Positions 21,365 through 29,528 of a stretch of DNA of 64,000 bases are shown here, one piece after another. The DNA lies in assembly GCA_963812905.1 (NCBI GenBank), contig CAWEWY010000003.1, positions 1,527,470 through 1,591,469 of the forward strand, read 5' to 3'. How positions within the stretch are numbered: position 1 is the stretch's first letter; each line of letters starts with the position of its first letter. The notes below the pieces were generated by a model. That model was given only the letters and a program-made list of their open reading frames with translations, searched no databases and was not told the origin of the DNA. Made by a program: the position numbers and the translations under genes. This DNA comes from an uncultured Solirubrobacterales bacterium. Lineage in GTDB: Bacteria > Actinomycetota > Thermoleophilia > Solirubrobacterales > 70-9.

Positions 21365-21438
21365 TGCCCCGAGCTGGATTCGAACCAGCGGCCTACTCCT
21401 TAGGAGGGAGTCGCTCTATCCAGCTGAGCTATCGGGGC
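21365..21438 (-). tRNA. tRNA-Arg (anticodon CCT)
   Basis: GCCCCGATAGCTCAGCTGGATAGAGCGACTCCCTCCTAAGGAGTAGGCCGCTGGTTCGAATCCAGCTCGGGGCA folds as a cloverleaf by hand: 7-bp acceptor stem, D-arm GCTC/GAGC, anticodon loop CTCCTAA, T-arm GCTGG-TTCGAAT-CCAGC. Confidence 0.85.
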
Positions 21439-21441
21439 GGG

Positions 21442-22674
21442 CTACCGGAAAAGGCTCTGTTGAGCCGTTTCCAGCGATTGTGAGTCGTCCGCGCTCGGCT
21501 CAGATTCGACAGAAACAGGCTCTCCGCTGCCCATTGCTGCCCATTGGAGGGCTGCATCGAACTCGCGAAGCGCCACGCCGATCAGCCTCTCGCGGCGGCG
21601 CACAGCACTAGCGTAGACCTTCATCGAGAACCCCGGCTCGGTGTGCCCGAGCTGGTTCGCCACGTACACGGGGTCGTCGCCCAGGGCGAAGCGCAGGCTC
21701 GCGTAGAGGCGACGTAGCGAGTGCGGTGTCACGGCTTCGTCAATGGGCCGAAGGCCCAGCTCATCGAGCCTCTTGTTGGCCCTGCGGATCGCCGTCTTCA
21801 AGCGCCGCTCGACGTTGCTCACGCTCTGCCGCTGTCCCTCGCGGTTGCGAAACATCGGACCCTCGCTGCTGCGCAGCGTGCGGAGCTTGTAGGCGGCGAG
21901 TTCCTTGCGCAGGGCGTCGGGGAGATCGACCTGGCGGATGCCCGCCTCGGTCTTCGATTCGCCAACGGTGAGCGTCCCGCTGGCCGGATCGAAGTCGGGC
22001 CAGTCAAGGCCGCAGGTCTCGCCGTTGCGCAGGCCGGCCCCCGCCATCGTGGCGACCATCGGCCGGAGCTTGCGCGCAGCTTCGAGGAGGGAGGGCAGTT
22101 GCTCTGGCTCGACGGTCGGCCGGTTCGGCGTGCTGCGCTTGACCCGCCGCCGTCTTCCGCGTGCCGGATTGCGCGCCGCGTCGATGTGCCCGTAATCGCC
22201 GGCGTCGTCGAGGATCATCGCCAGCAAGCCGAGCGACTTGTTGATCTGGTTCGGCCCAAGCGCTCCCTCGCGCAGCTTCGCGGCCTTGTAGCGGTCCACG
22301 TCCTCCGGCCCGATCTGGTCAAGGTGCATCGAGGCGAAGTGGGGGAGTAGATGCCCGCTCAGCAGCCAGCGGTAGCTCTTGACGGTCTTCTCCCGCAACT
22401 CCGGCTCGCGGCCCTCAAGCCATTCCGAGGCGAACTCATGGAAGGTCGGCGCTTCGGCAACCTGCGGGGTCTGCGCTGGTTCGTACGGCCGCCATAGGCC
22501 GCGCTCAACGTCCGCCAGGACGTGCCGCAACTCTGCCTCGGCCCGCTTGCGGTTCCAGCCCTCCTCGGCAGTCCCGAGAGCCACATAGCGCCGCTCGCCG
22601 TAGGCGCGGAACCGGATCGCCCAGGCGCGCCCGTCCTGCGGCTCGATCACCTGCCCTGTCGCTTTGCGAGGCAT
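21442..22674 (-). CDS. int: Tyrosine recombinase / phage-type integrase
   Basis: C-terminal catalytic region …VTPHSLRRLYASL…LGHTEPGFSMKVYAS…; the stop codon is 3 nt from the tRNA 5' end. Confidence 0.9.
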   Translation of the reverse strand: MPRKATGQVIEPQDGRAWAIRFRAYGERRYVALGTAEEGWNRKRAEAELRHVLADVERGLWRPYEPAQTPQVAEAPTFHEFASEWLEGREPELREKTVKSYRWLLSGHLLPHFASMHLDQIGPEDVDRYKAAKLREGALGPNQINKSLGLLAMILDDAGDYGHIDAARNPARGRRRRVKRSTPNRPTVEPEQLPSLLEAARKLRPMVATMAGAGLRNGETCGLDWPDFDPASGTLTVGESKTEAGIRQVDLPDALRKELAAYKLRTLRSSEGPMFRNREGQRQSVSNVERRLKTAIRRANKRLDELGLRPIDEAVTPHSLRRLYASLRFALGDDPVYVANQLGHTEPGFSMKVYASAVRRRERLIGVALREFDAALQWAAMGSGEPVSVESEPSADDSQSLETAQQSLFR

Positions 22675-22680
22675 CCCTAC

Positions 22681-23067
22681 CTAAGCCGCCGAGGGCGGAA
22701 AGTTCTCCCCACGCCGCCGAATCGGAAGCAACGCCACCCGTCCCTCCGACCCCTGCGGCTGGCCCGCCCGCTCACCTGAGCGGGTGGGCGGGTCAGCCGT
22801 CGGAACCTCGCCAACCTTCCGCAGCACCCGCACTGCCACTTCGGGATCGAAGCGAAGCCGTGGCTTCGCCCCGTCGCCAAGCTTGACCGCCCCCAGCTCG
22901 ATTGCGTGGGAGTAGACCCAGGAGCGCTCGATCCCGAGCCGCCGCGCCAGCTCAGCCGCATCGACCAGCTCGCGGCTTTGAAGGCCGCGCTTTTCGAGCA
23001 GTTCGACGACCCGGCGGGCAATCGCCTCGATTGTCTGGGGATCGAGCTTGATGCGGGTGGATGCCAT
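22681..23067 (-). CDS. xis: Excisionase-family HTH DNA-binding protein
   Basis: MASTRIKLDPQTIEAIARRVVELL…LVDAAELARRLGIERSWVYSHA is a MerR/excisionase-type HTH; sits immediately upstream of int. Confidence 0.6.
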   Translation of the reverse strand: MASTRIKLDPQTIEAIARRVVELLEKRGLQSRELVDAAELARRLGIERSWVYSHAIELGAVKLGDGAKPRLRFDPEVAVRVLRKVGEVPTADPPTRSGERAGQPQGSEGRVALLPIRRRGENFPPSAA

Positions 23068-23520
23068 CTCACATCTACTGTCAAAACTGAGAGCCGTTTG
23101 CGTCGGGTGACTTTGAAAAAGTTTGCGCAGCGCCTCTCCGGCTCGCGCAATCGACACCGCTCCCGACCCGCCGCCAAACATTGCTGACGTTGCAGATCAG
23201 CAAAGTGCGGCCCAGGCATGGAACCAAGGGGTTCGTAGTGTGTCGGCCGTCGGGGCTGTGGCGTGGGGAGGGCATCTGGGACTACCTGGGGGTCTGCCTC
23301 GGGACCTCTGGCATCTGTGGGGGTAGCTGGCCTGAGTCGGTGGCTCTGGCTGCTGGCTGAATGAATCTGATCTGGACTTGCTGGCTGTCTATGGCTGGCG
23401 TTCAGCGGCTTCTCGGAGGCCGAGGCAGGGTGCGGAGCCATCCATGCGAGTAGACAACCTCGCCACCTCCCTGTGGCCTGCGCCCCGGCCCCCGAGAAGC
23501 CGCTGAACAACCTTGCCGTT

Positions 23521-23805
23521 CTAAGTGACGCCCCCGATCAGCTCGTCAAAGCGAGCAGCGGCCCTGCTGGGGGCGAGCCTCCGGCAATCGCAGGTGAGCA
23601 GCCCGTCGCGGGTCAACTCCCGCACGGCGCGCTCTACGGCGTCCTGTTCGCAACTGCGCAGGTCCGTCTCGACCCGCAGGGCAAGCTCAAGGATCGTGAG
23701 CTGCGCCGGGTGCAGGAACAAGACCTGCGTGAGGACCGAACGTTCCATGATCTCGTCCTCGTGGAAGGGCGCAGAAAGGCCCGGCCGGATATCTTCGTCG
23801 TGCAT
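23521..23805 (-). CDS. Hypothetical protein with a possible winged helix, island cargo
   Basis: …LTQVLFLHPAQLTILELALRV…AVERAVRELTRDGLL…; divergent from the XRE gene. Confidence 0.4.
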   Translation of the reverse strand: MHDEDIRPGLSAPFHEDEIMERSVLTQVLFLHPAQLTILELALRVETDLRSCEQDAVERAVRELTRDGLLTCDCRRLAPSRAAARFDELIGGVT

Positions 23806-23958
23806 GGGAGTTCATACCTCCTGTGCCATGCCCCCGGCTGTTCCACCAGCGCGGGGGCGCTTTGTCGTTGGGTCGGCGAGCCTACAGCAACTTCTGCTGA
23901 AACACAAGTGCTCAGACAGGTGGATCGAAACGCCCGCGTCTGAGAACGTGCGCAGTGG

Positions 23959-28120: not shown

Positions 28121-28453
28121 CCCTGCATTTCCTTTCGCTGCGTTTTCGCTTCCATGTCTGAACTCCGCTGTCTTGACGGCAGTCGCTTTCTATCGCCACA
28201 GGGATCCAGATTCGCAAGTGCCGCCCGAAGGCGGCACCGCATCTCAGCCCGCCGAAACGAACTGAGGGGGTGCAGACAGAATACCTACAACCCTCGCCTG
28301 GTGCCTGCCTCGCGGCGTCGAGGACTGATTGGGCAGCGGAGCTTCTCGCTGCCCAAACCGGGATAGAAGCACGGCAATCCACAAGATTCCGCGGTCGCAC
28401 TCGGAATCGTCAAAACCTTACCCAGAGCCGAAAACGCGCGCGCCTCCACCTCG

Positions 28454-28497
28454 CTTAGGAGGGAGTCGCTCTATCCAGCTGAGCTATCGGGGCGGGC
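28454..28497 (-). repeat. att direct repeat 2 (tRNA-Arg 5' ~41 nt)
   Basis: cttaggagggagtcgctctatccagctgagctatcggggcgggc. Confidence 0.8.
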
Positions 28498-28535
28498 GCC
28501 GACATTGTCTCTCAGACGAGCCATCCAATGAAGCG

Positions 28536-28904
28536 CTAGGTCTGAAGCCGGTCGTGGGCGACTTGGTAGACGGTGGGAGCGTTCGAGCCACGCGGATGAT
28601 GGCGCACGCCGAAGGCGGCGTAGGCGAGTCGCAACTTGCCGTTGCGGCGCTCGATACGAAAGACCATGCCGAACTTTCCGTCAGGAGGCGGCAGGTAGAC
28701 CTTGACGCAATGCGCGAGTTGGGTTCCGTCTGCGCCTTCCTCGTCGCAGGCAAGAAGGACATCCACCGGCACGCCGTCCTGTTCGTACGCGCTCCGGGTC
28801 GCGTGGGCGACCTCCTGCCCCGCATCGCTGGCTCGCCTCAAATCCTCAGCGAAGGCAGCATCGTCGAACAGGGCCGTTGTCCGACCAGACCGCTTGTCGC
28901 TCAC
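28536..28904 (-). CDS. Mini-element 2, gene B': paralog of 27503-27871
   Basis: 10 substitutions in 122 aa relative to copy 1. Confidence 0.5.
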   Translation of the reverse strand: MSDKRSGRTTALFDDAAFAEDLRRASDAGQEVAHATRSAYEQDGVPVDVLLACDEEGADGTQLAHCVKVYLPPPDGKFGMVFRIERRNGKLRLAYAAFGVRHHPRGSNAPTVYQVAHDRLQT

Positions 28905-28907
28905 CGG

Positions 28908-29153
28908 CTACCCCTCGCCGTCGGGGGGCTGCACTGGGCCGAACTCGGCCTCGAACTCAGCCAAGGTCGCCGGCTCGGTGCCAAGGCGCTTGCGGATCGC
29001 CTCGAACGACGTATCCGGAACGAGGGTGAGCGATCCGTCCGGGCGCTCCTCGGTGACGCGGTACTCGCCCACCCGGTCGTCGCTGAGCTCGACATGAGCA
29101 TGCAACTCCATGCGGTGGATGATGGCAGAAGCCGACCGTGCTGTTGAAGGCAT
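28908..29153 (-). CDS. Mini-element 2, gene A': identical paralog of 27875-28120
   Basis: All 81 residues identical to copy 1; begins at the internal Met of track ORF 28908..29252. Confidence 0.5.
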   Translation of the reverse strand: MPSTARSASAIIHRMELHAHVELSDDRVGEYRVTEERPDGSLTLVPDTSFEAIRKRLGTEPATLAEFEAEFGPVQPPDGEG

Positions 29154-29487
29154 CCCTGCATTTCCTCTCGCTGCGTTTTCGCTTCCATGTCTGAACTCCG
29201 CTGTCTTCACGGCCAAGCCACTTTCTATCGCCACAGGGATCCAGATTCGCAAGTGCCGCCCAAAGGCGACACCGCATCTCAGCCGCCGAAACGGACTGAG
29301 GGGGTGCAGACAGAATACCTACAACCCTCGCCCGGTGCCTGCCTCGAGGCGTCGAGGACTGATTGGGCAGCAGAGCTTTCTCGCTGCCCAAACCGGGGTA
29401 GAAGCCCGGCAATCCACAGGAATCCGGGATCGCACTCGGAATCGTGTAATCCTTACCCAGAGCCGAAAAAGCGCACCCATCCGTCTC

Positions 29488-29528
29488 CCTTAGGAGGGAG
29501 TCGCTCTATCCAGCTGAGCTATCGGGGC
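29488..29528 (-). repeat. att direct repeat 3 (outermost; tRNA-Arg 5' ~41 nt)
   Basis: ccttaggagggagtcgctctatccagctgagctatcggggc. Confidence 0.8.

Follow-up and report, generated by a model that had tools for sequence, protein, structure and literature searches.

An integrase-bearing element and integrase-less gene cassettes beside a tRNA-Arg(CCT) gene in Solirubrobacterales

Organization of the tRNA-Arg(CCT) locus

We analysed a stretch of 64,000 nucleotides (hereafter, the window) of contig CAWEWY010000003.1, from the genome of an uncultured Solirubrobacterales bacterium of soil (assembly GCA_963812905.1), in which an array of units, one with a tyrosine integrase gene and the others without, lies beside a tRNA-Arg(CCT) gene. 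This gene, the sole tRNA gene of the window, is intact and is located on the minus strand at 21365-21438 (ARAGORN; Rfam tRNA model, 71.6 bits), as an earlier note made from the sequence alone had proposed. The same note had reported three direct copies of the 5' part of the tRNA, about 41 nt long and starting at 27423, 28454 and 29488; the three copies do exist, but they comprise the first 39-40 nt, and they start at 27422, 28454 and 29489. Positions 21399-21438 of the plus strand correspond to tRNA positions 40-1 and represent the one copy of the attachment (att) core to which the native 3' half is attached. When 21399-21438 was aligned with the three direct repeats, one, zero and zero mismatches over 40 nt were found for the partial cores at 27422-27461 (the distal end of the integrase-bearing element, island A, with the mismatch at tRNA position 40), 28454-28493 (cassette B) and 29489-29528 (cassette C), respectively. 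Successive core copies are 6023, 1032 and 1035 nt apart. No further copy of the tRNA 5' half was found in the window with up to eight substitutions allowed, nor was any repeat of the 3' half.

The proposal of an island of about 6 kb carrying the integrase gene is supported: island A lies next to the tRNA gene, which it would have rebuilt. Its integrase (Int; 21442-22674, minus strand) is a protein of 410 residues matching the Pfam families PF00589, PF14659 and PF22022 (Phage_integrase, SAM-like and central domains). The PF00589 match (E 4e-13, 49.9 bits against a cutoff of 27.1), together with the candidate catalytic residues R216, K241, H318, R321, H344 and Y354, read by sequence motif (R..K..HxxR..H/W..Y), places it among the tyrosine site-specific recombinases, and it also matched PHROG_1 (integrase) in PHROGs (E 9e-55). 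The N-terminus resembles Arm-DNA-bind_2 below the cutoff (E 0.0023, 18.4 bits against 22), and the coding region of the non-catalytic C-terminal tail (residues ~366-410) shares sequence with the putative P arm. Homologues fall into more than 100 clusters with 63-92% identity, mainly from Solirubrobacterales. The gene had been described as lying 3 nt beyond the 5' end of the tRNA; both gene and spacing are right, and the end facing the tRNA can now be specified as the 3' one, the stop codon being 3 nt from the 5' end of tRNA-Arg(CCT). Within the coding tail, two direct copies of TGGGCAGC in minus-strand reading (21526-21544, starts 21526 and 21536) are located 88-106 nt upstream of tRNA +1; these candidate arm-type Int-binding sites (P arm) had gone unmentioned in the earlier note. 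At the same 3' end, about 12-36 nt before the tRNA (21452-21474), the sequence GGCTC-AACA-GAGCC followed by TTTTCC resembles a weak terminator, and versions of it occur in the other int ends compared.

Directly upstream of int, and on the same strand, there is an open reading frame (ORF) that we refer to as xis-like (128 residues from M39 of a 166-residue ORF; 22681-23067, the ORF extending to 23181), which precedes int in all nine complete islands examined. Searches of Pfam, NCBIfam, PHROGs and PDB sequences returned nothing usable for it, and matches to RecA were disregarded, as they comprised no significant domain stretch. It had been termed an excisionase-like helix-turn-helix (HTH) gene; its conservation beside int agrees with this, but since its winged-helix matches are weak (E 0.014-0.11), the identity as an excisionase is unconfirmed, and we treat it as a putative recombination directionality factor. 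The int module further comprises a conserved 94-residue ORF (23521-23805, minus strand), present in eight islands and lacking a Pfam, NCBIfam or PHROG match, and, divergent from it, the gene for an XRE/Cro-type HTH regulator of 78 residues (23959-24195, plus strand; Pfam HTH_3, E 1.3e-14), conserved in nine islands. Between the 94-residue ORF and the xis-like gene, a long inverted repeat (23400-23508; 27-nt arms, 93% complementary, 55-nt loop) may represent an attenuator or terminator ahead of xis-int. A repeat of similar size is found at the matching relative place in a related locus (L063, 9283-9381; loci from other sources bear L numbers); since its sequence is different, position and form are kept and sequence is not.

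The rest of island A is its variable cargo (24315-27230), i.e., an ORF of 671 residues (24315-26330, plus strand) and one of 271 (26415-27230, minus strand), neither of which matched Pfam, NCBIfam, PADLOC or PHROG families. The GC content of the cargo is 0.546, against ~0.70 in the host, and no alignment was obtained between this region and the related islands it was compared with. For the 671-residue protein, no more than 43 homologues were retrieved, one of which, in L148, stands beside an integrase fragment and an HTH gene. The distal end of the island (27270-27461, minus strand) consists of an att arm with a TGGGCAGC-N11-GCTGCCCA pair at 27295-27323, followed by the partial core (nhmmer att profile, E 9e-39).

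Cassettes B (27462-28493, 1032 bp) and C (28494-29528, 1035 bp), both read on the minus strand, are the two units of about 1 kb that had been claimed to lack a recombinase. They encode only two proteins, of 81 and 122 residues, and scans with Pfam, NCBIfam and PADLOC detected no recombinase gene in either. In B, the core (28493-28454) and an inverted pair (28329-28356) are followed by the 81-residue gene (27875-28120), the 122-residue gene (27503-27871) and a -10-like element, GAGAGACAAT (27472-27481), 10 nt before the next core. In C, the core (29528-29489), the inverted pair (29363-29391), the 81-residue gene (28908-29153 if B is taken as the model; the mechanical ORF, 28908-29252, has 114 residues) and the 122-residue gene (28536-28904) have the same order. 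The former gene is co-oriented with the latter and ends 4 nt upstream of it. We adopted this gene model because it is backed by the source gene calls and by 268 homologues of the 122-residue protein, all of those with a source name being labelled Solirubrobacterales; gene calling based on GC content at third codon positions (GC3) was abandoned, as it selected antisense ORFs. The two cassettes are 94% identical (975 of 1036 columns). The 122-residue protein matched no Pfam, NCBIfam or PADLOC profile. For its AlphaFold2 (AF2) model (predicted local distance difference test, pLDDT, 64.7), Foldseek placed RelE/HigB/ParE/YafQ toxins in the first 18 ranks of its PDB matches and in most of the top 50, but only at E 0.056-0.5 and TM 0.3-0.5. 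According to this model, a toxin-antitoxin (TA) label for the 81/122-residue pair is reasonable but unproven.

The array had been thought to end at 29528, and this is not borne out. Positions 29539-30216 share 71% identity with complete nucleotidyltransferase cassettes of three other loci (L019, L027 and L049) over positions 175-855 of the latter, whose first 175 nt have no match in the window; the window therefore harbors a fourth, core-less cassette. This cassette D (29529-30260, minus strand), the outermost one, has its own core and arm deleted and carries the genes for an AbiEii/DUF2204-like nucleotidyltransferase (29549-30025; PF09970, 30.4 bits against 20.3; PF08843, 27.0 against 22.5; PADLOC AbiEii, E 1.3e-6) and for a small partner (30022-30234), together with a -10-like element, CTCTACGAT (29540-29548). 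Host homology resumes at 30260. The variable locus thus spans 21439-30260, between tRNA-Arg(CCT) and p208, a host gene coding for a 208-residue protein with no domain (30283-30909, minus strand), which represents its conserved outer boundary.

The attachment module shared by the units

The window contains 10 occurrences of the motif GCTGCCCAW where 1.03 would be expected, a number that none of 100 shuffles reached, and eight of them fall in the island region. It forms three inverted pairs (27295/27315, 28329/28348 and 29363/29383), each at 98-99 nt from a core copy, so that a TTGGGCAGC/GCTGCCCAA inverted repeat accompanies every partial core of the window. The earlier note had described a hairpin about 95 bp inside each att copy; the inverted repeat is indeed conserved, but the distance is 98-99 nt and its features are those of a protein site and not of a folded structure.

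The alignment of 90 partial cores and their downstream sequences revealed a conserved arm, about 140 nt in length, regardless of the cargo. It comprises the blocks GTTTTCGGCTCTG and GGATTC, CGATT repeats and, at its end, the TGGGCAGC-N-GCTGCCCA inverted pair, the whole shared att module being about 200 bp long. The pair is exact in 76 of the 90 arms, at a distance of 95-102 nt from where the core ends, most often 99 nt (54 cases), and its spacer measures either 10-12 nt (60 of 76) or 0-2 nt (16 of 76), two classes about one helical turn apart. The possibility of a structured RNA in the arm was rejected: apart from the inverted pair, which is invariant, RNAalifold recovered nothing but a weak stem of 5 bp (covariation term -0.21), and the search of Rfam found only the tRNA. 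Since the arms of the pair are invariant, show no covariation and have spacer classes differing by about one helical turn, the pair would fit paired protein-binding half-sites, not a folded structure.

Moreover, a direct TGGGCAGC-NN-TGGGCAGC repeat is located at -106 to -88 in all 12 intact int 3' ends. This direct pair in the int tail and the sub-threshold match of the integrase to an arm-binding domain suggest that TGGGCAGC may be an arm-type Int site, in which case the int elements would possess a two-armed attP and the cassettes a one-armed one.

The inverted pair might instead be a promoter/operator module for the downstream cargo, bound by the XRE protein or by a host factor, and have no part in recombination. 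Such a role would agree with the core-less fused cassettes, which keep the segment corresponding to att profile ~118-221 and lose the core and the proximal arm, and with the CGATT and TACGAT-like motifs that stand just upstream of the pair. However, the same 8-mer recurs across the core as the direct pair of every int element, which is the layout of a lambda-type attP; furthermore, the inverted pair is common to cassettes with unrelated cargo and its distance from the core is fixed at 99 nt. For these reasons we consider it rather unlikely that the pair has a regulatory function in place of a recombination one, even if both functions could hold together.

On the opposite side of the core, a hexamer (TACGAT, TACGCT or GACAAT) is present in every cassette 3' end, terminating about 10-11 nt before tRNA +1, and the same -10-like hexamer is found at the native p208 3' end of empty sites. 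It may be a promoter element that keeps the rebuilt tRNA expressed.

As for the core itself, tRNA position 40 differs in 30 of the 90 partial cores, every other position differing in four at most. The identity block therefore corresponds to tRNA positions 1-39, ending at the 3' edge of the anticodon loop, and it runs to the 5' end of the tRNA gene, not to the usual 3' end. In the anticodon-loop class of att sites (Williams 2002), the attP/attB identity block extends from the anticodon loop to one end of the gene. The class is summarised in 10.1101/2020.11.02.365908. The block found here has the same extension, starting at the anticodon loop and reaching the gene end, and by analogy the strand-exchange region would lie in the anticodon loop.

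Distribution and dynamics of the arrays in related genomes

The pattern formed by the core end, 90-108 nt, TGGGCAGC, 0-24 nt and GCTGCCCA was searched for in 185,579 genomes, one per prokaryotic species. The scan yielded 59 tiles from about 55 metagenome-assembled genomes (MAGs), nearly all labelled Solirubrobacterales, in which 60 core-to-core units could be mapped. Forty-five of these measure 0.65-1.5 kb and belong to at least seven recurring DNA families, with typical cassettes of 0.8-1.2 kb; the nine units of 3.1-6.3 kb all abut an intact tRNA and all match Xis and Int. MNT+HEPN genes are the commonest cargo of the small units, which may otherwise contain an AbiEii/DUF2204-like nucleotidyltransferase with a small partner, the 81/122-residue pair, a retropepsin-like aspartyl protease with a DUF5678 protein, a 158-residue membrane protein (TM158), an AAA_16 ATPase or HEPN_Swt1.

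An unbiased survey was based on 80 metagenome loci found via the host gene p208 and not via the repeat. Thirty of them reach an intact tRNA: four are empty, 11 contain one to three partial cores, and 15 hold 0.8-4.2 kb without a recognisable partial core, most of the annotatable ones carrying a nucleotidyltransferase cassette. Int elements are present in three of the thirty. At the empty sites the 3' end of p208 (..CTCTACGAT..) lies from 14 nt (L113, L128) to 57 nt (L133) before the tRNA. In three loci with ~90% nucleotide identity to the window (L068, L069 and L071), homology breaks at 30260 and resumes at 21441; these syntenic relatives differ from the window at this locus only, their content between the two points being another one, in L071 a single nucleotidyltransferase cassette. 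A syntenic metagenome contig (L002), on which no integrase was found, displays in succession a partial core, an MNT/HEPN cassette of 1196 bp, a second partial core, an 81/122-residue cassette of 1033 bp and the intact tRNA. The unoccupied loci and the units occurring alone or in different number, which the earlier note had suggested looking for, are thus both present in relatives, together with other array compositions.

The same note had named the occurrence of the small units at unrelated sites without tRNA-derived flanks as evidence against its reading, and strictly no such case was found. A gene pair resembling the 81/122-residue one (71% identity) does lie at an unrelated site in L001, without tRNA flanks, core or inverted pair; it consists of the cargo genes only, with no att module. 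Directly after this free-standing pair, L001 carries an IS21-type element (10694-13005; IstB and a Mu-type transposase C-terminal domain).

Some relatives also harbor TA-like genes on the other side of the tRNA, between its 3' end and the DUF480 gene (L063, 11326-12116; L064, 11500-13060; L066, 11365-12931), namely HEPN+MNT genes carried by the other strand, or HTH+HipA genes. Their presence suggests that in relatives insertions also gather on the 3' side of tRNA-Arg(CCT), at a second hot spot. The window has no extra genes there, the tRNA starting at 21365 and a DUF480-like ORF occupying 20668-21336. In L066, a complete chromosome, a group II intron reverse transcriptase (RVT_1 and GIIM; 15873-17255) is located downstream of the locus.

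Several loci record the loss of int and the fusion of units. Remnants of the int 3' end persist in L004, L019 and L048, and in L009 and L038 an int remnant is followed by a partial core and further cassettes; in these loci, therefore, insertions continued after the arrival of the int element, and int decays in place. In L025, what separates the 81/122-residue pair from the xis-int genes after it is a degenerate vestige of the inverted pair, with no core; similarly, cassette-type cargo stands in arm-proximal position with no core before the int module in L056 (81/122-residue pair), L053 (TM158) and L032 (DUF5678 and aspartyl protease). As cassette cargo adjoins the int module without a core in these four loci, it is suggested that int elements capture cassettes by loss of the intervening core. 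Core-less fused cassettes recur (L137, L142 and L116 among them), with the segment from just before the inverted pair onward being kept. Several fusion junctions coincide with CGATT motifs, which stand on either side of the core; that of L066 (5425-5520) does not. CGATT is present in the -10-like CTCTACGATT before the core and repeatedly within the arm, and it may mark a hot spot of deletions or be bound by another protein.

Of the 42 partial cores of the unbiased set, 35 have at most two mismatches to the tRNA, and the arms differ by 12-40%. Cores that are near-invariant beside diverging arms speak for either continuing recombination or selection on the core. Many Logan contigs of ~1034 nt and ~2100 nt were considered as possible circular excised cassettes and rejected as evidence. 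One of them (L003, 1034 nt) has the inverted pair and both genes, lacks a complete core and appears to start and end inside the core; since a de Bruijn assembler breaks at a 40-nt repeat, this is not evidence of a circle.

Interpretation and relation to known systems

According to these data, the p208-tRNA stretch at 21439-30260 is probably a site-specific recombination hot spot for one lambda-type tyrosine integrase family of Solirubrobacterales, with accretion of arrays. The lambda-type features are the direct TGGGCAGC pair of the int tails and the inverted pair of the arms, the match to an arm-binding domain remaining below threshold. Site-specific recombination at the 5' half of tRNA-Arg(CCT), as had been claimed, is supported by the att-bearing units and by the empty, single and array states of relatives.

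The mechanism can be depicted as follows. The attP-like site of an element would consist of the -10-like hexamer about 10 nt before tRNA +1, the first 39 nt of the tRNA and the ~140-nt arm. Int, possibly with the xis-like protein, would recombine this site with the chromosomal tRNA gene, with strand exchange probably in the anticodon loop. The entering element would land upstream of the tRNA and supply a new 5' half and promoter, the native 3' half being retained and the old 5' half displaced outward as a partial core; repeated insertion would then generate an array with its newest member beside the tRNA. Two types of unit may take part: elements of 3-6 kb with XRE, 94-residue, xis-like and int genes, whose direct TGGGCAGC copies would complete a two-armed attP, and cassettes of 0.8-1.2 kb with a single TA or defence operon and the att module, without a recombinase. 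Most likely the integrase would act on the latter too, moving, duplicating or deleting them or carrying them along. It would do so in trans or else in cis, a cassette and an int element then forming a composite through recombination between the distal core of the cassette and the tRNA core beside the int tail. The mobilisation of cassettes by the island integrase and the present-day mobility of the units are both read from sequence and may be regarded as plausible. In the window, cassette D would be the oldest member, its core lost and the remainder fused to the flank; an 81/122-residue cassette would have followed, later duplicated or re-integrated to give C and B; and int element A, with its low-GC cargo, would be the newest.

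A number of observations weigh against this reading. In every segment, B and C have each other as closest relative, so that a duplication or re-integration of one cassette is probably the better account of them than two separate acquisitions, and that part of the array would be duplication and not foreign accretion; the tandem accretion originally claimed is supported as regards units with their own att-type sequences, and is less likely as two acquisitions of B and C. No TGGGCAGC copy is present in 103 of 108 cassette 3' ends, and if both arms were required, cassettes could not integrate alone; as they lack the direct pair, either composite movement or a relaxed need for arm sites is favoured. 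A scan of the region for sigma-70 promoters with the consensus of the E. coli type gave none, so that the case for the -10-like element is one of positional conservation. The identities between loci are 83-89% for cassettes and xis-int and 83-88% for host genes, and neither the comparison of cassettes with p208 (eight informative pairs) nor that of xis-int with flanking host genes revealed the excess similarity of a recent transfer between lineages. Moreover, the lengths of five complete chromosomes with int-less arrays agreed with none of the longest-contig values given for the 120 listed clusters of close Int homologues, an indirect comparison that is no proof of int being absent from these genomes. 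The order of cassettes is conflicting, with MNT/HEPN before the 81/122-residue pair in L002 and the reverse in L018 and L066; since one array may hold more than one MNT/HEPN or nucleotidyltransferase cassette, the differences may derive in part from differential loss from long ancestral arrays, and we downgraded cassette order from a proof of independent insertion to a suggestive trait. Recent horizontal transfer was rejected, the divergence of cassettes and xis-int tracking that of the host. The picture is that of an old, order-wide system, a resident platform rather than a recently invading island.

Several of these observations would suit a different origin, in which the small units are relics of int elements that lost their recombination genes by deletion (the classic route of cis-mobilisable elements, CIMEs) and are immobile alone. 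Arrays would then change solely through recombination, homologous or unequal, of their 40-nt cores and arms, and this could have given B and C as well. The in-place decay of int in five loci (L009, L038, L004, L019 and L048), the cargo that int elements can share with cassettes, the many arrays without a nearby int, the host-like divergence and the mutual closeness of B and C are all in agreement with such an origin. Nevertheless, the cassette families keep clean boundaries in many genomes without any int-tail remnant, and each has a -10-like element of its own, whose spacing from the core is fixed; partial cores remain near-identical to the tRNA while the adjoining arms diverge, and most arms retain the exact inverted pair. 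Independent deletions are unlikely to have yielded one operon plus an intact att module time and again, and on balance we deem this origin unlikely, slightly more so than a regulatory role of the inverted pair. A local tandem duplication including the tRNA 5' half, by slippage or unequal crossing-over and without site-specific recombination, would account for the tandem, 94% identical B and C, but it is already contradicted by the comparative data and hardly credible, given that one 39-nt boundary separates unrelated cargo in the window (A, B/C and D) and in more than 100 other loci, that the identity block stops exactly at the anticodon loop, that the integrase abuts the tRNA and that empty sites exist.

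Within the site-specific recombination that we favour, a stronger formulation can be put forward only tentatively, as being somewhat less probable than its negation: the locus might be a tRNA-anchored analogue of an integron, where TA/defence operons of about 1 kb are taken up one by one, copied, rearranged and lost at tRNA-Arg(CCT). Each operon would be fused to a ~200-bp module of promoter, tRNA 5' half and Int arm, the recombinase would be the lambda-type integrase of a minimal xis-int element, and the cassettes would restore and re-promote the tRNA, the promoter reading into the next cassette.

If cassettes move singly, this would be a second, independently evolved route to ordered gene-cassette arrays, with a double-stranded tRNA-derived att site and an ordinary phage-type integrase in place of IntI and the folded attC. 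Integrons are rare in the host phylum. The system is compact (an att module of ~200 bp and two proteins) for studying how integrase-less DNA is mobilised; it also suits the questions of how a tRNA is expressed when an element replaces its promoter-proximal half and of how TA and defence genes build up at hot spots in abundant uncultured soil bacteria. The conservative reading still provides an order-wide integration hot spot on the 5' side of a tRNA, with a clear grammar that can be used in genome annotation.

We then compared the locus with the established classes of elements. The ORFs of 21442-30260 contain no recognised domain of a type IV secretion system (T4SS), an FtsK/TraB-type translocase, a relaxase or a replication module, the 671- and 271-residue ORFs being domainless and possibly of novel function, and the locus is thus no integrative and conjugative element (ICE), actinomycete ICE (AICE) or integrative and mobilisable element (IME) by its recognised domains. 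An origin from a temperate phage or satellite received no support: in the search for phage structural, packaging and replication genes, PHROGs matched only the integrase, and the scan of IMG/VR retrieved a single relative, with 48% identity. Membership in the integrons was rejected, as the integrase scores 26.1 bits against a cutoff of 265 with the NCBIfam integron integrase TIGR02249, over residues 290-346 only, and the inverted pair is unlike attC in its invariant arms, absence of covariation, spacers of 0-2 nt in 16 of 76 cases and tRNA-derived core. B and C do have the form of CIMEs, lying between core copies without recombination or transfer genes. As to an origin by gene loss, int decay is observed at some loci, but most cassettes have no int remnant and show clean, recurrent boundaries, and the family is not known to include a conjugation module.

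CIMEs have been defined as decayed ICEs or IMEs (e.g., those related to ICESt1/ICESt3 of Streptococcus thermophilus; PMC5704250). The likeness to them concerns att-flanked units without recombination genes, in tandem with an int-bearing element at one site, the composite excision (cis-mobilisation) and gene capture proposed for them (PMC5704250), and the in-place decay of int, which is seen here too. Nonetheless, CIMEs are usually of several kb and idiosyncratic, whereas the cassettes are single-operon units of 0.8-1.2 kb, belong to recurring families and share an att module of ~200 bp; furthermore, conjugation and mobilisation genes are lacking here, and it is the 5' half of the tRNA that is replaced, not the 3' end of a target gene.

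With integrons, sedentary chromosomal integrons and clusters of attC sites lacking integron integrases (CALINs) (PMC4889954, PMC13108822), the locus shares an ordered array of small cassettes with a conserved site per cassette, frequent TA cassettes, a tyrosine recombinase at the insertion end, the existence of int-less arrays and divergence in step with the host. It differs in having a lambda-type Int with SAM-like and putative arm-binding domains in place of IntI, and a double-stranded tRNA-derived core with an arm, some spacers being of 0-2 nt, in place of a folded attC; moreover, the integrase belongs to a seemingly excisable element, and the cassettes hold whole operons.

In the tycheposons of Prochlorococcus (10.1101/2020.12.28.424599), tyrosine-recombinase elements likewise reside at tRNA genes, older ones being pushed outward by successive integrations and leaving partial tRNAs and degenerate remnants behind in a genomic island; judging from the gene labels of that preprint, they are multi-gene elements with replication modules (helicase, primase). 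Here, instead, the recombination module is limited to xis-int with two or three small genes beside it, mobility genes are absent from most units, the tRNA 5' half is used, and both phylum and cargo are different. The arg2 islands of Klebsiella (10.1101/2020.11.02.365908) resemble our locus in that the tRNA receives its 5' portion from an element located upstream of it, which sets them apart from the great majority of tRNA-integrating elements; no cassette arrays were reported there, and in our case the identity block reaches the anticodon loop (positions 1-39). Our literature searches, whose coverage is incomplete, found no description of such a system in Solirubrobacterales or Actinobacteria.

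Tandem accretion (PMC5704250), outward displacement at tRNA genes in the tycheposons (10.1101/2020.12.28.424599) and integration on the 5' side of a tRNA (10.1101/2020.11.02.365908) are therefore already known. What these systems do not cover is the combination of single-operon units of about 1 kb, their recurring families, an att module of ~200 bp with a tRNA promoter element and an order-wide distribution. On these grounds we classify the array as a form of tandem accretion, CIME-like in kind, with an integron-like organization.

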